Below are positions 40,685 through 48,442 of a stretch of DNA of 64,000 nt, in pieces. This stretch comes from an uncultured bacterium. Its GTDB lineage: Bacteria; Desulfobacterota_D; UBA1144; Nemesobacterales; UBA2774. The stretch is from assembly GCA_963705505.1 (NCBI GenBank), contig CAVPJU010000010.1:352001-416000 (forward strand). Direction: 5' to 3'. How positions within the stretch are numbered: the first letter of the stretch is position 1; every line of letters begins with the position of its first letter. Below the pieces are notes generated by a model. It had not been told where the DNA came from and did not search any database. It saw only the letters and a program-made list of their open reading frames with translations. Position numbers and translations under genes: made by a program.

Positions 40685-41528
40685 TCAGCTCTCGTTAGCG
40701 ATCCGGAAGTTGTCCGACAATGTCGAGGCGTCATTAAAAAACTCTATAGTCCTGTTTATCACGGTGTCCTTGTCGTTGTCTATCGTAACGATGTGATAAC
40801 TGTTTTTTAGTCTGACGAACTGCTTGTTGTCGGAACCGATATTTTCATATATATACTGCGCGTTCTTTATGTCGCAAATATCGTCCTCTTCCGGGTGCAT
40901 TATTATCGTCGGGGTTTTCACTTTATTCATATTCTTTTTTAAATGCTTTGAATATCTCAGGAGCTCGGCGAAGGTTACAGCGGGATACCTGTCGTACGCA
41001 CTGCTGTTACTGGACGAGAGTAAAGTAATTACCTTTTTTCTAACGTGCTCGTTCTTAACGCCGTAGGGCTCCCTTTCTATAAAGGAATAATCTAGAATAT
41101 CCGCTACGGGTGTAAATGCCAGAACTATAAGGAACCTGAACCACGGCAGGCTCCACCCATCAAGCGATAACGTCGGAGACAGTAGCGCCAGATGCTCGGG
41201 GAGTATTGTTTTCAATCGCTATGCTCAGACAAATGAGCGCTCCCAGGCAAAGGCCTGACAAATACACCTCCTCGTACGTCGAGGATAATCTCTCAAACTC
41301 GGCCTTCGCAAAATCGTCCCAATCCCGCCACTTTTTCGATTTCAGGTCCTCTATGCTCGTACAGTGTCCGGGCAGGCAGGGACAATGCACGTCGTAACCC
41401 ATTTTATGCATCTTACCTCCGTAATACCTCATCTCGAACGGGCTGCCCGTGAGACCGTGGAGCAAGAGTACGGCTCTTCTGTTATTAGCCGTGAGTGTAA
41501 AACTGTTCGGTTTGTTCATTGTATGCAC
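40685..41528 (-). pseudogene. Alpha/beta hydrolase (carboxylesterase-like, GxCxG nucleophile) split by a frameshift near 41190-41215
   Basis: ORF 41160-41528 has LLHGLTGSP and SGLCLGA. ORF 40685-41215 continues with LLSPTL..DGW, EEDD and NSYH. The break may be a real lesion or a sequencing error. Confidence 0.8.
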
Positions 41529-42883
41529 CTCCTGAATAGCTGGTCCAGCAATTCTATGGCCATGTCGATTTCTTGATCGTCTATGTGGAGCGACGGGGCC
41601 AAAGTAAGAACGTTTTTGTAATACCCTCCCACGTCAAGTATCAATCCGAATTTTTTACCCTTGTAGTCCAGATTTCCCGTAAGCCCTTCCTCGAGGAGCT
41701 TGTCGGTCAGTGCCTTACTCGGCGTGTATCCGTCCGCTTCACAAATTTCCACTCTCAAAGCAAGCCCGAGGCCGTCGACGTCCCCTATGTTTTTATACAT
41801 TTTCTTGAGCTCTTTTAATTCCCCGAGAAATTTTCGGCCCTTCTCCTCCACCGGGCTCTCGTAATCCGTCTCCTCCAACATGTTCATAACCTCGATGCCG
41901 GCTCTCACTCCTATCGGGTTCGATGAGAACGTAGAGTGTGTGGAGCCCGGCGGGAACACGGAGGGATCTATCAGCTCCTCTCTCGCCCACAATCCGGACA
42001 GCGGGTTCATTCCATTGGTGAGAGCTTTGCCGAATACGATGATATCGGGCTTTATATCGAAATGCTCTATAGCCCAGAGTTTTCCCGTACGGTAAAACCC
42101 CATCTGTATCTCGTCGTCGACGATTAATATGTTATGTCTGTCGGTTATCTCTTTTAACTTTTTGAAATAGTCTTTGGGCGGGATGGTGTATCCGCCGGTA
42201 CCCTGGACGGATTCTATGAAAAACGCCGAGAACTCGGCCTGCGCCGCCTTCGAATCGTAAAAGGAGTGGTACTCCGAATCGAACAGGAAATCGAATTGAT
42301 CAACGCAGTAATAGCCGCATTCGCCGAACTTCTTGCCGTAGGGACATCTGAAGCAGTACGGAAACGGCACGAAGTGCGCTCTTTCTGAAAAATGGCCGTA
42401 TCTCCTCCTGTACCTGTAGCTCGACGTTATGGACGAAGCGCCGAGCGTCCTGCCGTGATACCCGCCCATAAAAGCGAACATCAGGTTTTTGCCCGTGTAA
42501 TTTCTAATGAGTTTCAGCGCGTCTTCTACGGCCTGCGAGCCGCCTACGTTGAAGTGCACCCTGCCGTTCATGCCGAAACGTTTTCTGTTCGCCTCGCATA
42601 TTTTAGAAGCGAGGAGGGCCTTACTTTCGTGCAGAAACTGCGAAGCAACCTGCGGCAGTGTGTCCATCTGATCTTTTATCGCGTCATTTATGCGTTTATT
42701 TTTGTAGCCGAAACTGCACGCGGAGTACCACATCTGAAGATCGAGGTACGGCTTACCTTCCGTGTCATATACAAAACTCCCTTCGCACTCCCTGAAAACC
42801 TTTGGATGTTCCAGATAATGGACGGTATCGCCGAACGAGCTATACCGGTTATCCAGTTCTGATATTTCGTTATCGGTCAGCAT
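41516..42883 (-). CDS. Class III PLP-dependent aminotransferase
   Basis: GGYHGRT, DDEIQMGFYRTG, FGKALTNG (PLP Lys), STFSSNP. Confidence 0.93.
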   Translation of the reverse strand: MLTDNEISELDNRYSSFGDTVHYLEHPKVFRECEGSFVYDTEGKPYLDLQMWYSACSFGYKNKRINDAIKDQMDTLPQVASQFLHESKALLASKICEANRKRFGMNGRVHFNVGGSQAVEDALKLIRNYTGKNLMFAFMGGYHGRTLGASSITSSYRYRRRYGHFSERAHFVPFPYCFRCPYGKKFGECGYYCVDQFDFLFDSEYHSFYDSKAAQAEFSAFFIESVQGTGGYTIPPKDYFKKLKEITDRHNILIVDDEIQMGFYRTGKLWAIEHFDIKPDIIVFGKALTNGMNPLSGLWAREELIDPSVFPPGSTHSTFSSNPIGVRAGIEVMNMLEETDYESPVEEKGRKFLGELKELKKMYKNIGDVDGLGLALRVEICEADGYTPSKALTDKLLEEGLTGNLDYKGKKFGLILDVGGYYKNVLTLAPSLHIDDQEIDMAIELLDQLFRRCIQ

Positions 42884-43622
42884 TCTTTTTCTCCTTGTTA
42901 AATAAAACCTTTCTTATATCATCGAAGCTCGAGAACTCGATGAAATCTATCGCGTTCTGCGTACAGTAATCCGAGAGTCTGTTCTTCGCGAAAACTATGT
43001 CGGCTTTCCTCACGGCGCATATATCCGATTCTCCATCCCCTATGTACGTCACTGTCTTCTTCCCTTCGTATTTATCGACAATCGAACACTTGCACATGCC
43101 GCTTTTCATATAGCACTCTTTTGTCTTAAAGGGAAATGAAGGGATGGGCCTGGAGTTTCTTATTCTCAGACGGTTCGCGAAAACGGGTACGGTCGATATA
43201 CCGTTATTCAGTAAAATCAGCTTGATCAGCCAGTCAAACCCGTCGCTGACAATGTAGAAATCGATTCCGTTCTTACTTACGGAGCTCAGGAAATCCGGAA
43301 AGTACGGATCTATTTCTATATCCAGGGCGAATCTGAGAAGCTCGCGCTCATTTAAATTCTCGATACATCGGAGCTGGAGCCTCAGACACTCCTCGGAACC
43401 TATTTTGCGCTGCTCCCAGAGTTTTTCGATCTCCTTCCAACGTCTATCAGCATAGATATTTAAAAGCTTGTCCACAACATCTTCTATCGTTATCGTTCCG
43501 TCGAAGTCGCAGAAAATAGCTTCACCTATTCCGGCGGATTCGGTCACTTCTTTCCGCGCATACGGCTCGGACGGCTCAAAGTTAGTATGGTTGAATGTTA
43601 AAGCGAGATTTTTATTACTCAT
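42870..43622 (-). CDS. MtnX-like HAD-IB family phosphatase
   Basis: CDFDGTIT, VSDG, GMCKC, YIGDGESD. Confidence 0.9.
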   Translation of the reverse strand: MSNKNLALTFNHTNFEPSEPYARKEVTESAGIGEAIFCDFDGTITIEDVVDKLLNIYADRRWKEIEKLWEQRKIGSEECLRLQLRCIENLNERELLRFALDIEIDPYFPDFLSSVSKNGIDFYIVSDGFDWLIKLILLNNGISTVPVFANRLRIRNSRPIPSFPFKTKECYMKSGMCKCSIVDKYEGKKTVTYIGDGESDICAVRKADIVFAKNRLSDYCTQNAIDFIEFSSFDDIRKVLFNKEKKNADR

Positions 43623-44925
43623 CGAACCTCCTCAGGACCAGAGTCACGTTCGTCCCGCCGAATGCGAACGAATTGCTGAGAGCAATTTTTATCGCCATAT
43701 CCCTCGCCTCGTTCGGAACGTAATCCAGGTCGCACTCCGGGTCCATGCTCTCATAATTTATCGTGGGAGGCACGATCCCGTGATACAAGGCGAGAACGGT
43801 GAATACAGCCTCTACGCCGCCAGCGGCGCCCAAAAAATGACCGGTCATGGATTTTGTCGAGCTGATGGGAATAAGGTATGCGTCGCTATCGAATACCTCT
43901 TTCACGGCGCGTGTTTCATTGACGTCGTTCTGGAGGGTTGAAGTACCGTGAGCGTTTATGTAATCGACGTCTTCGGGGTTGATCCCCGCGTCTCTCAGAG
44001 CCATCCTCATGCACCTGACGGGCCCGTCCGTGCAGGGCGAGGTAATATGGTAGGCGTCGCTGCTCATACCGTACCCCGGAACCTCGGCATAAATCCTCGC
44101 CCCCCGTTTTTTTGCGAATTCCAGCTCCTCGAGTATCAGGATCCCTGCTCCCTCGCCGATCACGAAACCGTCGCGATCCCTGTCGAACGGGCGAGACGCC
44201 TGCTCGGGCTCGTCATTCCTGGTGGAGAGGGCGTGCATCGCGCCGAATCCGACTATCATCGCGGGATGGACAGAGGCTTCGGTCCCCCCGGCGATAATCA
44301 CATCCGCATCCCCCCTTTCAATAGTCCTAACCGCCTGACCTATGGAGTGTGAGCTGGCAGCACAGGCTGTAGTTATACACATGCTCGGCCCTTTCGCGTT
44401 AAAGAATATCGACACGTAACCCGCCGCCATGTTCGTGATAGTTGCGGCAAGGGAGAACGGCGATACGCGGCCCGGCCCTTTCTCATAGAGCTCCGACAAG
44501 CTTCTCCACAAGGTGTCGAGCCCCCCGACCGTCGAGCTGATAAATGTGCCTGCTTTGGGAGAGAGCTCTTCGTCGATTACTAGTCCGGCATCGTCCAGAG
44601 CGAGCCTTGCAGCGGCGACTGCGAACTGAATAAACCGGTCGCTCCTCCTGGCGTCCTTAGGGTCCATGAAATCCACGGGATTAAAATCCGTGACTTCTCC
44701 CGCAATCCGGGTCTTTAGAGAAGAGGTATCAAACTTCCGAATCTGTCTTATTCCTGAATGTCCCTCACAGATTCCGTTCCAGGTTTTTTGAGTACCCGTG
44801 CCGAGCGGTGTTATGAGCCCCACTCCGGTAACGACCACTCTCCTTTTTGTCAAGTCCCGTGATACGGACTCCTTCAGAACGCGGGAGGGTTTTACAAGCG
44901 TAATAGACTGTTTATCTATTAGCAT
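43615..44925 (-). CDS. fabF: 3-oxoacyl-ACP synthase II
   Basis: RRVVVTG, TACAASSH (Cys), HGTST, KSMTGH, SNSFAFGG. ATG at 44925 has a GAGGAG SD; the ORF is open to 44964. Confidence 0.93.
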   Translation of the reverse strand: MLIDKQSITLVKPSRVLKESVSRDLTKRRVVVTGVGLITPLGTGTQKTWNGICEGHSGIRQIRKFDTSSLKTRIAGEVTDFNPVDFMDPKDARRSDRFIQFAVAAARLALDDAGLVIDEELSPKAGTFISSTVGGLDTLWRSLSELYEKGPGRVSPFSLAATITNMAAGYVSIFFNAKGPSMCITTACAASSHSIGQAVRTIERGDADVIIAGGTEASVHPAMIVGFGAMHALSTRNDEPEQASRPFDRDRDGFVIGEGAGILILEELEFAKKRGARIYAEVPGYGMSSDAYHITSPCTDGPVRCMRMALRDAGINPEDVDYINAHGTSTLQNDVNETRAVKEVFDSDAYLIPISSTKSMTGHFLGAAGGVEAVFTVLALYHGIVPPTINYESMDPECDLDYVPNEARDMAIKIALSNSFAFGGTNVTLVLRRFDE

Positions 44926-44998
44926 TTCCACACACTCCTCAATTTCGTGAATTGATTGAGTCAAATGAAAAATTCAGATCTGTTGGAACTATCCGCAG

Positions 44999-45409
44999 TT
45001 AAAGCGTGAAATAAGGAGGCGACCTTAAAGGTAGTGAAGTAAGGAACAGTACATCGGAGGGAGGCTCCATTTTATCGAACAGAGTTTCCCAGTATGGATT
45101 GATCAAAGGACGGTTAAAAATCTTAAATGCGATTTTTGAAAATATTCTGGATTGCTTTTGTACGCTATCTTGAGCTAGATTTAGTCTGGGATCTTCATTT
45201 ACGAATACGAGATCCATATCCTGGTCGTCGGCGTCGTTATCTTCAACACCGCATTTATCTCGTTTGTCCAGGGTCAATACCGAGGTGTCATAGCTTGAGC
45301 CAGTCTGCCAGAGATCCTCCTGGACATCCTGTTGCAAACTAGCCAGTCTGAATGTGCCGGTAAAAACGATTAAAGCTAAAAAAGTTAATGATCTGGTTAT
45401 ATTACTCAA
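44999..45409 (-). CDS. Upstream ORF with N-terminal hydrophobic signal and C-terminal RSPP motif (putative translation-arrest leader)
   Basis: 136 aa, TTG start, hydrophobic LTFLALIVFTGTF, ends LPLRSPPYFTL, directly upstream of fabF on the same strand. Confidence 0.6.
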   Translation of the reverse strand: MSNITRSLTFLALIVFTGTFRLASLQQDVQEDLWQTGSSYDTSVLTLDKRDKCGVEDNDADDQDMDLVFVNEDPRLNLAQDSVQKQSRIFSKIAFKIFNRPLINPYWETLFDKMEPPSDVLFLTSLPLRSPPYFTL

Positions 45410-45710
45410 ACAAGTGGTTTCCTGAGACTCCGGAATAAAGACATATTTTCTTTCTAAATATTACTCCTAAGTTTACTTGCTAATTTTTCTTAGGAGAATA
45501 AAGTATTTTACTTAATTGTCAAGATAAATATTTCCCCGGTAACGATCTGACCCGCCCCATCAGGCCACCGTATTTAAGTCCATCTTTTGAGTTATTTCTT
45601 TCACTATGAGCCTCTCAGAAGGGAAATAATTTGGGTGATGAAATAGAGTTGTCTCCGGATAGGAAATGGCCTTGATTTACTGAGAATTTATAATAAGCTA
45701 ACAGCATTAA

Positions 45711-45785
45711 GCCGACGTAGCTCAGTGGTAGAGCAGCTCACTCGTAATGAGCAGGTCGGAGGTTCAAATCCTCTCGTCGGCTCCA
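45711..45785 (+). tRNA. tRNA-Thr(CGT)
   Basis: Full cloverleaf: acceptor GCCGACG/CGTCGGC, anticodon arm GCTCA-CTCGTAA-TGAGC, GGTTCAAATCC T-arm, encoded CCA. Confidence 0.97.
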
Positions 45786-45973
45786 ATGAAAACTGTGGGT
45801 TACGTAAATATTCACTAAATAACATCAACCGCTAAATTTGTTACGTCATCAAACTCTTTATCTTAAGTAAATATTTAAACGTAACCTCTTTCATGAAATC
45901 AGCAAGCTTGGAATTTATAGACAGGTATTTACCAATATTTAATTGGTCTCAGGAATTTCATAATCTTGGTTAA

Positions 45974-47125
45974 TTAGTGGTCATGCATATATATCATTTT
46001 AAGATCCCAATTTTTTGCATCGAGTAAATCCAAACCTTGAAATTCAATTTTATTATTATGTTTGCCGATTGGTCGAATCAAAATAGTTCGAGGAGGGTCT
46101 TTTACGCTTTTTGCCGAATTGTTGTCGTTAAATCCTTGTGATACTAAAAATTCATAGCTATCTTGGTCCAATATATTTGCCCAAATTGATATTGATCCGG
46201 AATTCATTAGCGATATCAAAGATTTCAGCAGCTCAATTTTTATTGAGGAGTTGGTTGCTTCTAATTCTAATATATTATGTGTGCCTCCGGATTCCACACT
46301 GTATAAATGGCTTTGTAATACCAGATAGCCTTTTAAGCCGTCATCGTACCAGTATAGGAAAAGATATTTTGAAAGCGGGTTATTGTATCTCCAACGGAAG
46401 TACGCTTCATCTCGTACCAGGGTGATTTTATTTTCTGGAATTGTACTTCTAACGAGAATAGCCATTTCCGCCGGTTTGGGTTTATTGTCTAACAAAATAT
46501 GGGGAGGCAGCTGAGTCCTCGTGTTGTGATAAATCATATCGATTCTTTCTGAATTGTCTCTTTTTCTCCTTTTTAAGATCATGTTGATCCCGGTTTTTCT
46601 CAATAATTTTCTAGCGTATGGACCCGCTAATTTCTTGGCGAGTGCGATCGCATTTGATCCTTTACTTTGGAATTGTTTATTAATGATTTTAATTTCTCCG
46701 ATGCTCTTCCAACCCATGAATAAAGAAATTATGGCATTTGAGGGCGTTGCATTGAAACTTAGAATGTATTGAACGCCCATCTTTTCCAAATCGTCCATGA
46801 CGAAGTCCGCTAGCTCTTTATATATTCCTTTGTTTCTGTATTCCTCGAGTATTAACAAATCCGCACCACATAACGCATTAAATCTTGATGATGCGCTTTT
46901 TAGCTGCCATGTTGTTTCATACGCGCCTCTCATGGCTACGACCTCTTCTCCGTCACGAACAAAATATATTATGGGTGGTTTAGAATGAGGTCGATCTATG
47001 TAGTTCCATTTTACATAGGATCTGAACACATCTAAGTCCAGACCCCAGTTGATTGTTTTGAGTCTGGCGATTTGATCTATATGGTTTTCAAAGTCGTCAG
47101 AATATTTTAATATTACACGGTCCAT
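45974..47125 (-). CDS. GNAT-fold acyltransferase (two-domain)
   Basis: KWNYIDRP, ADLLILEEYRNKGIY, RDEAYFRWRYNNP. Confidence 0.8.
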   Translation of the reverse strand: MDRVILKYSDDFENHIDQIARLKTINWGLDLDVFRSYVKWNYIDRPHSKPPIIYFVRDGEEVVAMRGAYETTWQLKSASSRFNALCGADLLILEEYRNKGIYKELADFVMDDLEKMGVQYILSFNATPSNAIISLFMGWKSIGEIKIINKQFQSKGSNAIALAKKLAGPYARKLLRKTGINMILKRRKRDNSERIDMIYHNTRTQLPPHILLDNKPKPAEMAILVRSTIPENKITLVRDEAYFRWRYNNPLSKYLFLYWYDDGLKGYLVLQSHLYSVESGGTHNILELEATNSSIKIELLKSLISLMNSGSISIWANILDQDSYEFLVSQGFNDNNSAKSVKDPPRTILIRPIGKHNNKIEFQGLDLLDAKNWDLKMIYMHDH

Positions 47126-47163
47126 TTTGGTGTAGTTGAATCAGTGTTGGTTGTATTGAAAAG

Positions 47164-47424
47164 TTATGGTTTGCAATCCTTTACGAAATTTAAAATGCCA
47201 TTTATGGTGTCCCATTCAATAGTGAAGTCCAAAATCGTCAGCTCCAATGGAGAGCCGACTTCCTCCTCCACCAGTAACGCCAGCTCAAGTAATTGCAGAG
47301 ATTCTAAAAGACCTGAAGTTATAAGTGGTGTGTTATCGTCGTAGTTTTCAGGAATGGATTTCCCTGAGTCTTTAATTTTAGCATCGATAAAGTCTATGAG
47401 TCTTTGTCTTAAATGTTCTGACAT
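47164..47424 (-). CDS. Acyl/peptidyl carrier protein
   Basis: 86 aa acidic protein with DNTPLITSGLLESLQLLELAL.VEEE (phosphopantetheine Ser in ESL) and WDTIN.I. Confidence 0.8.
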   Translation of the reverse strand: MSEHLRQRLIDFIDAKIKDSGKSIPENYDDNTPLITSGLLESLQLLELALLVEEEVGSPLELTILDFTIEWDTINGILNFVKDCKP

Positions 47425-47434
47425 CTGAAAGTTC

Positions 47435-48442
47435 TTAGTCCGACGTGTCGAGCTCCTTCCAGCTTACTTGTTTTGCCATTGCGACGACGACCTTTCTCTT
47501 GCCGGAGAATGGCTTCCTGCCGTGAGCGACGAGCATATTGTCGAGCATAAGGACATCTCCAGGTTCCCATCTGAAAGCAATTGTCGCAGCATCGTAGGCT
47601 TTCCGCAGTTCTTCAATCACGTCTTTACTGATGCTCGTTCCGTCGCCGTAGTATGTATTGTTCGGCAAATCCTTCTCTTTGAATAATTTAAGAAGCATTT
47701 TCTGCAACTTGGGCTCAATTGCGAATACATTAAGCAGGGTGGCGTGATTCATCCACAATAACTCTCCTGTAACGGGATGCTTCGCAATTGCCGGCCTCAG
47801 CTGCTTAGTTCTTACTTTGTTCTCGTCTATCCAATCATAATCTGTTTCGGATTCTTTACAGAACCTCTCCATCTCGGCTTTATCCTGTGTTTGGTATACT
47901 TCCTGCCACGTGAAGCCGAACGGTCCTCCGCTCAAGTTCCTCACATATAAAACACCTTTTTCCTCGAAACGTTTCCTGATCGAGGGGTCGATTTGCTTGT
48001 ATACCCGCCTCACGTCCGCTATGGGTGTTTCCCCTCCTTTCTCCGCGGATTCGATGCAGTAAAAGAAAATTCTCATCGGGAATTGTGCTGCGAAAGAGTG
48101 TTCGTTATGTAGAATGATCTCAAGTTCTGGAGGGAAATCTGTGGCGGTATAAATCTTTCCCTGGACCTGAGTTCTGTGTGTGATTCTGTCGTTATAATCG
48201 ATCAAGCTGCCGTAACTGCTTTCCACCGTAGCTTCGAAGTCTTCGACCCCGCCTACCTTAAACCCTCTGAATAATATGCCGCCGTATTTTAATAAATTTG
48301 TTTCTATTTCCTTTTGGTTTGCTTTGAAAAACTCTCTTATCGGTAAATCTTGGTGCTTTGGAGTAATCACAAGCGGCAGTTTTTTCTCTTCGTCAATAAA
48401 TCCTGTAAGAATTTCAACGTTTTCACCAAATCCAACTGTCAT
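47435..48442 (-). CDS. TauD/TfdA family Fe(II)/2-oxoglutarate dioxygenase (SyrP-like)
   Basis: YGGILFRGF, HNE metal motif, GGETPIAD, HPVTGE, DNMLVAHGR. Confidence 0.9.
   Translation of the reverse strand: MTVGFGENVEILTGFIDEEKKLPLVITPKHQDLPIREFFKANQKEIETNLLKYGGILFRGFKVGGVEDFEATVESSYGSLIDYNDRITHRTQVQGKIYTATDFPPELEIILHNEHSFAAQFPMRIFFYCIESAEKGGETPIADVRRVYKQIDPSIRKRFEEKGVLYVRNLSGGPFGFTWQEVYQTQDKAEMERFCKESETDYDWIDENKVRTKQLRPAIAKHPVTGELLWMNHATLLNVFAIEPKLQKMLLKLFKEKDLPNNTYYGDGTSISKDVIEELRKAYDAATIAFRWEPGDVLMLDNMLVAHGRKPFSGKRKVVVAMAKQVSWKELDTSD

Follow-up and report, generated by a model that had tools for sequence, protein, structure and literature searches.

Ribosome arrest at an R-x-P-P motif close to the stop codon of a small signal-bearing protein is known from ApdA of the Actinomycetota and ApdP of the Alphaproteobacteria, both of which are encoded upstream of secDF. 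The Arg of this motif is irreplaceable and both Pro residues are needed, an exchange of the P-site Pro being partly tolerated only as P133G in ApdP (PMC12992588). At position x, the exchange of Ala for Gly is fully permissive, that for Ser, Asp or Pro partly permissive (PMC12992588; for Ser also PMC7897499). The ribosome stalls with the third motif codon in the P site and the fourth in the A site (PMC12992588); the Arg stacks on Psi2504 of the 23S rRNA and residue x makes its contacts via the backbone, and a two-module model with an arrest and a regulator module has been put forward (PMC10951233). Small secretory proteins with RAPP or RGPP precede diverse genes, and seven out of seven such proteins of Streptomyces lividans as well as CruR of Bordetella pertussis arrest in vitro, the latter with a toeprint at the Pro codons (PMC12992588). 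Most cellular RAPP-like motifs do not stall, the upstream residues in the exit tunnel matter, and upstream open reading frames (ORFs) with RSPP cluster with those carrying RAPP (PMC10987492). RSPP itself ranks with the most under-represented tetrapeptides of proteomes, and random screens for arrest sequences have yielded it (Tanner 2009, Woolstenhulme 2013, cited in PMC12992588). Here we analyse a candidate leader of this kind, a putative C-terminal RxPP leader of the small secretory or membrane proteins that stand before diverse genes. It lies in a stretch of 64,000 nucleotides (nt) from an uncultured bacterium (GenBank assembly GCA_963705505.1, contig CAVPJU010000010.1, positions 352,001 to 416,000; hereafter the window), where a minus-strand ORF of 136 codons ending in ...LPLRSPPYFTL precedes a fabF gene.

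A first-pass annotation of the window had described this ORF with a hydrophobic N-terminus, its RSPP-containing end and its distance to fabF, and all three descriptions hold (Table 1). The best 19-residue Kyte-Doolittle window reaches 1.64, and the downstream gene is a true fabF with both Pfam ketoacyl-synthase domains and 615 bits against TIGR03150 (cut-off 493.75). Judged by its substitution pattern, the 136-codon ORF is real, translated and under purifying selection: the ratio of nonsynonymous to synonymous substitutions (dN/dS, Nei-Gojobori) over the whole ORF is 0.17-0.38 in the three pairwise comparisons between the window and the orthologous fabF-type loci L002 and L004, which together make up the DNA comparison of this subtype. 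Neither Pfam (E <= 0.01) nor NCBIfam gave a match for the leader, and three relatives likewise had no Pfam match at E <= 0.1. A search of 5.8 billion proteins returned nine homologues at 61-98% identity, none of them with a Pfam domain or an informative name. A hidden Markov model (HMM) of nine members matched only 34 clusters (E <= 0.001) in a set of 1.84 billion representative proteins, all of 115-149 amino acids (aa) save one 32-aa fragment, and HMM searches still recognise family members at 20-30% identity. The nearest ESM Atlas cluster is unnamed, has 52 members and is most frequent in Thermodesulfobacteriota. Pattern-based locus searches and phylum-level genome searches found leader-like loci in 11 of 120 genomes, with up to four copies per genome; within one family of the same order nine of 15 genomes contain members. 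As sampled, the family is restricted to Thermodesulfobacteriota-type genomes and metagenomes.

The constraint on this family is concentrated at the motif, and conservation of this extent puts the ORF and its motif well outside what chance would give. In an alignment of 53 sequences with a mean column identity of 32%, only R129, P131, and P132 are invariant, while L128 and S130 are conserved in at least 90% of the sequences. The core reads RSPP in 52 members and RAPP in the remaining one (P0023), so that the conservation of R-x-P-P expected by the first-pass annotation is borne out in 53/53 sequences and loss of the motif in orthologues was not seen. The total length varies from 115 to 157 aa, but the second Pro is followed by three residues in 31 and by four in 19 of the 53 members (the latter as in the window), and by five, six or nine in one member each. 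A hydrophobic 19-residue stretch of at least 1.6 lies within the first 60 residues of 50 members; of the three below this value, P0005 and P0022 seem to lack N-terminal residues that the others have. The second Pro follows this anchor at a distance of 85-118 residues in every one of the 53. The residues behind the Pro pair are variable (YFTL, SFPA, YCPL, LFS, LFL, SFLI), which is expected if they are outside the arrest module. Upstream of the motif the block LINPYWETLF...LPL is invariant in a 10-sequence subfamily alignment, and I103, N104, W107, E108, L126, P127, and L128 remain so even among sequences of 27-34% identity. At 22 loci for which DNA was available the motif Arg is encoded by AGG or AGA, the Ser by all four TCN codons and each Pro by all four CCN codons. 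This synonymous variation indicates that the peptide and not the bases are under constraint. The Arg codon is a matter of its own: it is AGR in 21/21 cases compared with 63/110 for Arg elsewhere in the same ORFs, and across all 22 loci CGN never occurs at the motif, whereas 43% of the other Arg codons are CGN, for which we have no explanation. A six-frame count of RSPP in genome ORFs of at least 100 aa gave 24 occurrences against 20.0 expected, thus no depletion, but this set is rich in shadow ORFs and was not used further.

From this pattern the leader is probably, though by no means surely, a RAPP-like arrest leader that would act as a stalling-type translational switch. We favour this reading because the constraint matches the known RxPP specificity almost residue for residue, with R, P, and P fixed, x small and the tail free, and because the motif stands at a near-fixed distance from the stop codon and from the anchor, follows a moderately conserved stretch of about 30 residues and is found in front of unrelated genes. 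According to such a mechanism the N-terminal hydrophobic segment would direct the nascent chain to the membrane, and the ribosome would arrive at R129-S130-P131-P132 about 107 residues later. The approximately 30 residues before the motif would then fill the exit tunnel and, by analogy to ApdA, ApdP, and CruR, P131 and P132 would occupy the P and the A site, respectively. How long the stall lasts would be set by an action on the exported part of the chain, either the pull of Sec/YidC-dependent insertion or a periplasmic ligand of the acidic middle region. The stalled ribosome would cover about positions 45031-45003 and block the CCUCCU stall-site codons from the GGAG-type ribosome-binding site (RBS), reshaping the 73-nt spacer so that translation of the fabF operon would rise. 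The arrest itself, its release and its control of fabF we infer, as we do the coupling of translocation or membrane state to lipid synthesis that had been proposed for this locus.

Table 1. Features of the leader-fabF locus in window coordinates
Feature	Position	Strand	Basis
Sigma-70-like promoter, TTGACA / 16-nt spacer / TATTCT, 10/12 consensus matches	45522-45495	-	consensus match only
ATG mini-ORF of 12 codons; its TGA stop overlaps the TTG start of the leader (TTGA)	45406..45444	-	
Leader ORF, 136 aa, candidate RSPP arrest peptide; TTG start, TAA stop at 45001-44999	45409-44999	-	
N-terminal hydrophobic anchor/signal segment, residues 7-25	45335..45391	-	Kyte-Doolittle
Conserved C-terminal block LINPYWETLF...LPL, candidate 'regulator module' in the tunnel	45026..45106	-	alignment
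R129-S130-P131-P132, codons AGG TCG CCT CCT, proposed arrest module	45014..45025	-	
Stall-site segment CUCCUUAUUUC, complementary to the fabF Shine-Dalgarno region	45008..45018	-	
Spacer, 73 nt, AU-rich alternative hairpins	44926..44998	-	
fabF ribosome-binding region GAAAUUGAGGAG; Shine-Dalgarno sequence GAGGAG at 44940-44935, 9 nt 5' of the ATG at 44925	44935..44946	-	
fabF paralogue, beta-ketoacyl-ACP (acyl carrier protein) synthase II, first enzyme gene of the operon	43615..44925	-	Pfam + TIGR03150
HAD-IB (MtnX-like) phosphatase and class-III aminotransferase, after fabF	41516..43622	-	Pfam/NCBIfam

Like ApdA and ApdP, the leader is a small signal-bearing protein with R-x-P-P near the stop codon and a same-strand gene behind it, and in both cases the upstream tunnel residues are conserved inside a group and unrelated between groups. 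It differs from them in having no sequence homology, in its RSPP core (52/53), in a predicted arrest and in the genes behind it, which are fabF or other envelope genes instead of sec or yidC. The leader also resembles the RAPP/RGPP proteins of Fujiwara et al. (EMBO J 2025, PMC12992588), including the seven of S. lividans, which are likewise small and signal-bearing, have the motif near the C-terminus and precede genes beyond those for protein localisation. Their survey, as presented in its main text, took RAPP and RGPP only, and an RSPP family would therefore be missed; in that main text, supplements aside, the terms ketoacyl, fatty acid and lipid are absent. CruR (DUF2946) and CutF, the leaders of copper-related genes, are exported, have a C-terminal RAPP or poly-Pro sequence and control the next gene post-transcriptionally, as the leader of the window would, but the latter has no Cys/His metal motif and a different putative target. 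Membership in DUF2946, one of the leader types named by the first-pass annotation, was not confirmed by Pfam (no match at E <= 0.01), and in the ESM Atlas a DUF2946 cluster appears only among the distant feature neighbours (108 shared features, score 0.93). Of the claimed combination of a signal with an RxPP arrest leader, the invariant motif, the anchor, the downstream gene with its Shine-Dalgarno (SD) sequence and the precedent in the literature are borne out, whereas DUF2946 membership is not, and folding does not predict the proposed 11-bp RNA switch at this locus. SecM-secA, MifM-yidC2, and VemP-secDF2 follow the same logic: a stall near the end of the leader makes the SD of the next gene accessible, until the nascent chain is exported and the stall relieved. 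However, their arrest sequences are different (...GIRAGP in SecM), and here the Pro-Pro codons would be the SD partner, which at this locus is not the dominant predicted structure. Identity with SecM (FxxxxWIxxxxGIRAGP upstream of secA) was rejected, since the leader ends in ...FLTSLPLRSPPYFTL and is followed by fabF; the leader was also not assigned as a homologue of any named arrest peptide or as a DUF2946 member. In the literature searched, supplements aside, we found neither this family nor a native RSPP core, the use in several operons of one lineage or a fabF operon as target. A full-text search for an arrest peptide linked to fabF gave nothing, and one for RSPP with arrest or stalling gave only the papers cited here plus work on sparsomycin.

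Several results weigh against an arrest leader, the first of them at the level of the protein. The leader starts with TTG and has no good SD. Ser at position x is only partly permissive in ApdA and ApdP (PMC12992588, PMC7897499), so that the arrest may be weak. Furthermore, purifying selection extends over the whole ORF including the middle, as it likewise would in a protein with a function of its own. We consider it unlikely, but it could be that the leader is such a protein, anchored in the membrane or exported, in which LPLRSPP-xxx is bound, processed or recognised by a partner, such as the PDZ domains of the HtrA-type protease that many of the related clusters encode, and that fabF is a plain operon neighbour. 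In favour of this idea, dN/dS is as low as 0.28-0.54 in residues 36-98 too, the fabF-type subfamily has an invariant Cys53 and an acidic block that is strongly conserved, conservation reaches about 30 positions upstream of the motif, and an HtrA-type Trypsin_2 + 2xPDZ protease is encoded two genes downstream in the five loci scanned. However, the downstream genes are unrelated between loci, no protease is encoded at the window locus, and AlphaFold2 (AF2) gave no confident fold past the anchor. With the 53-sequence alignment only an N-terminal helix is modelled, with a predicted local distance difference test (pLDDT) of 79-93 for residues 1-30, 47-61 past residue 40, and a predicted template modelling score (pTM) of 0.23. 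The sole natural substitution at x, in P0023, yields the canonical RAPP. The extreme C-terminal residues, which PDZ ligands need, vary while R-x-P-P does not, and for this reason a PDZ ligand or C-terminal sorting signal was ranked low. In addition, a protein acting on its own would leave unexplained the CCU codon bias and the matched SD changes that are described below.

The remaining objections concern the RNA. The first-pass annotation had proposed that the codons at the stall site sequester the fabF SD in an 11-bp helix. The complementarity is real: positions 45018-45008 can pair with 44946-44935 in 11 pairs with one G-U and one bulged U (duplex -9.6 kcal/mol). It is nevertheless absent from the minimum free energy (MFE) structure, and as an operative switch at this locus the helix was not supported when positions 45040-44900 were folded, since forcing it gives -26.4 kcal/mol compared with -28.8 kcal/mol for the MFE. 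It is thus suboptimal by 2.4 kcal/mol, and when 141, 221 or 341 nt are folded its pairs form with a probability of about 0.15, 0.34 or 0.03, respectively. In the MFE the tail codons UUUCACGC are paired with GUGUGGAA and the SD is held in a spacer-internal hairpin of -7.4 kcal/mol; the whole region folds with z = -1.97, and 10 out of 200 shuffles are as stable. The two inner stems that had been suggested (AACUG/UAGUU and UGAAUU/AAUUCA) are complementary on paper but used neither in the MFE nor in the constrained fold. Masking the ribosome footprint changes the unpaired probability of the SD in the window only from 0.21 to 0.25, and no more than 1-2% of the SD pairing goes to the stall site, with 0.02 and 0.12 in natural strain variants. 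The extended pairing is also not kept in the orthologues, as the second Pro codon CCC of L004 creates a C-A mismatch and L002 retains a 7-bp core only. The local SD hairpin is not conserved either, with an uncompensated stem change in L004 and in one natural strain variant, and in these variants the SD is still predicted to be paired within the spacer. In L002 and L004 the stall site takes about half of the SD pairing, and once the footprint is masked the SD is unpaired with a probability of 0.47 instead of 0.17 and of 0.46 instead of 0.32, respectively. The ribosome-binding region itself is the same in L004 and conserved in L002. In the reads of four DNA sequencing runs a handful of strain single-nucleotide polymorphisms were found at the locus, none of which touches the RSPP codons or the SD; a search for RNA sequencing runs that include the locus returned none. 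At this locus alone the pairing is indistinguishable from what Pro-Pro codons opposite a GGAG-type SD give anyway, and the anti-SD RNA step is the weakest link for this locus.

Across the family the picture is more favourable. In 12 out of 20 loci at least 74% of the predicted SD pairing goes to the footprint of the stalled ribosome, and in 13 of the 20 masking the footprint lifts the unpaired probability of the SD by at least 0.10; the stall-site share is below 0.74 in the other eight, and seven, including the window, show little or no unmasking. The mean duplex energy of a footprint with its own RBS is -14.05 kcal/mol compared with -12.94 kcal/mol for mismatched locus pairs (permutation p = 0.0095) and -10.5 kcal/mol for shuffled footprints, and the motif Pro codons are CCT in 31/42 cases compared with 59/127 elsewhere in the same ORFs (Fisher p = 0.002), but both p-values overstate the support as the family loci are related. 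Matched changes, which had been named as a check of the pairing, were found at some loci: in L005 CCUCCCUC pairs with GAGGGAGG (-23.4 kcal/mol) and a CCC codon for the second Pro is matched by GGGAGG, and in a second family copy of the window's own genome (G000) ACCUCCGUU pairs with AACGGAGGU in nine perfect pairs, where CCG for the second Pro is matched by CGGAGG and masking raises the unpaired probability of the SD from 0.01 to 0.52. RNAalifold found no consensus structure in 13 spacers in front of a ~210-aa gene, for which the MAFFT alignment of the diverged sequences is poor. Part of the complementarity in the family is the unavoidable match of CCU-CCU with GGAGG. Because of the locus-specific extensions and the CCU bias, these data suggest, as moderate evidence, that the Pro-Pro codons may be used as an anti-SD in the family.

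These RNA data bear on two further explanations. It is rather improbable that translation makes only a brief Pro-Pro pause resolved by EF-P, or a stall that serves the leader protein alone in folding, insertion or quality control, with fabF governed by the spacer hairpins and the promoter. In the window the predicted SD hairpin indeed lies beyond the reach of a ribosome stalled at RSPP, and in ApdA and ApdP an RSPP core arrests less strongly than RAPP or RGPP. Nevertheless, this hairpin is not conserved, being disrupted in L004 as well as in one of the natural strain variants, a generic Pro-Pro pause needs neither an invariant Arg nor a near-fixed distance of three to four codons to the stop, and the complementarity of stall site and SD is present in most related loci. 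A pure RNA anti-SD element with an incidental reading frame, to which CCUCCU as a perfect SD complement, the CCT enrichment at both Pro codons and the constant AGR for Arg would be suited, has hardly any probability left and was rejected, being effectively refuted by motif codons that vary synonymously while the amino acids are fixed in 22/22 loci, besides a dN/dS well below 1 and a family that the HMM recognises at 20-30% identity.

Returning to the interpretation as an arrest leader, the genes behind the family members are diverse. At 20 of the 22 DNA loci the leader is followed, 73-165 nt further on, by a gene on the same strand that has a strong SD; of the two exceptions L020 ends with its contig and L018 has only a short ORF after the SD. 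The next gene is fabF in three loci (window, L002, and L004; gaps of 73-76 nt) and a conserved protein of about 210 aa in 13 (gaps of 132-159 nt, strong AGGAGG-type SD), while a Wza-like Poly_export protein, a sulfotransferase, and a cupredoxin occur in one locus each, small signal-bearing ORFs in two, and one locus ends at the contig edge. The ~210-aa protein has no Pfam or NCBIfam match, and its AF2 model is all-alpha (pTM 0.73) with no Foldseek match in the PDB at E <= 0.001. In five extended loci its gene is followed by that of a secreted protein of about 100 aa and then by the HtrA-type protease, which was identified in all five loci whose protease was scanned (L026, L027, L028, L033, and L036). 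In L027 genes for a P-type ATPase and an Rce1-like CPBP protease come next. Five of the 13 spacers of the ~210-aa type (L009, L011, L012, L014, and L024) contain a hairpin GTCCGTT...AACGGAC about 45-75 nt past the leader stop, which in L012 shows a two-sided change to CCATT/AATGG; no U-run follows the hairpin on either strand.

More tentatively, and with somewhat more doubt than confidence, we propose that these leaders are a lineage-specific family of native RSPP arrest peptides that serve as envelope-state sensors wired to several modules, with the Pro-Pro codons as anti-SD. Among these modules would be the accessory fabF-led lipid operon, the cluster with the HtrA-type protease, a cupredoxin, and a polysaccharide exporter. 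If true, a fatty-acid synthase gene would for the first time be seen under nascent-chain control, and the 'partly permissive' RSPP would be a naturally selected core, which implies a tuned, weaker or lineage-specific arrest. If the arrest as such is confirmed, an unannotated family joins the RAPP-like arrest peptides with RSPP as a native invariant core and not a weakened variant, and nascent-chain control would reach as far as membrane-lipid synthesis and a cluster with a periplasmic protease. The family also offers a compact natural test set for the co-evolution of regulator and arrest module and for the recruitment of Pro-Pro codons as anti-SD. For annotation, its presence flags operons of these uncultured bacteria in which translational control is probable.

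The second family copy in G000 is diverged, encodes 141 aa and lies 2.4 kb past the end of the window (C10:418403-418828, plus strand; locus L046:504-929). It ends in ...SHLRSPPLIK, is assigned to the family by hhalign with 93% probability (E = 2.7e-7) and is followed after about 95 nt by a small signal-bearing ORF without Pfam match. The same genome contains an unrelated ORF of 128 aa with an anchor and RSPP that ends in ...NTNRSPPFLIS (G000:C6:316974-317360, minus strand; locus L045) and reaches an hhalign probability of only 2.9% against the family. It is located 90 nt upstream of the gene for a secreted protein of 254 aa, behind which lie CopC, an ORF of 160 aa, CopD, and PCu(A)C. With this CopC-CopD-PCu(A)C operon behind it, it matches the copper-related group in the main text of PMC12992588, and from its sequence it looks like a copper-type RxPP leader, one in which this genome uses RSPP independently of the family.

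On the minus strand of the window the order from upstream to downstream is promoter, leader, spacer, fabF, and the rest of the operon. The promoter stretch is identical in L004, and its 3' part was found in L002. No intrinsic terminator was found between leader and fabF, and an Rfam scan of positions 43000-47000 (E <= 1) gave nothing besides a tRNA-Thr and its antisense shadow. In L004 the mini-ORF in front of the leader reads ATG-TCT-TGA and overlaps an upstream in-frame TTG, in L002 its stop is located 4 nt past the TTG, and the sizes of the mini-ORF differ between the two. This arrangement suggests the possibility that the leader is initiated by termination-reinitiation from the mini-ORF. 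The fabF gene behind the leader is a second, accessory paralogue and not the housekeeping gene, because another fabF above the cut-off is present in the same genome (G000:C10:212039-213253, TIGR03150 626.8 bits). Among 26 related genomes the HAD gene of the operon was found only in G000 and G006, the two which have the leader. At the end of the operon an alpha/beta hydrolase is split into two overlapping frames (41528-41160 and 41215-40685, minus strand; region 40685-41528), which is either a frameshift or an assembly error. The tRNA-Thr, on the opposite strand at 45711-45785, divides the fabF unit from an upstream unit at 45974-48442 (minus strand) that encodes a TauD-family dioxygenase, an ACP-like protein of 86 aa with a weak PP-binding match, and a GNAT-like protein of 383 aa without NCBIfam match. 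Together with the fabF operon this unit may constitute a specialised acyl or amino-lipid pathway.

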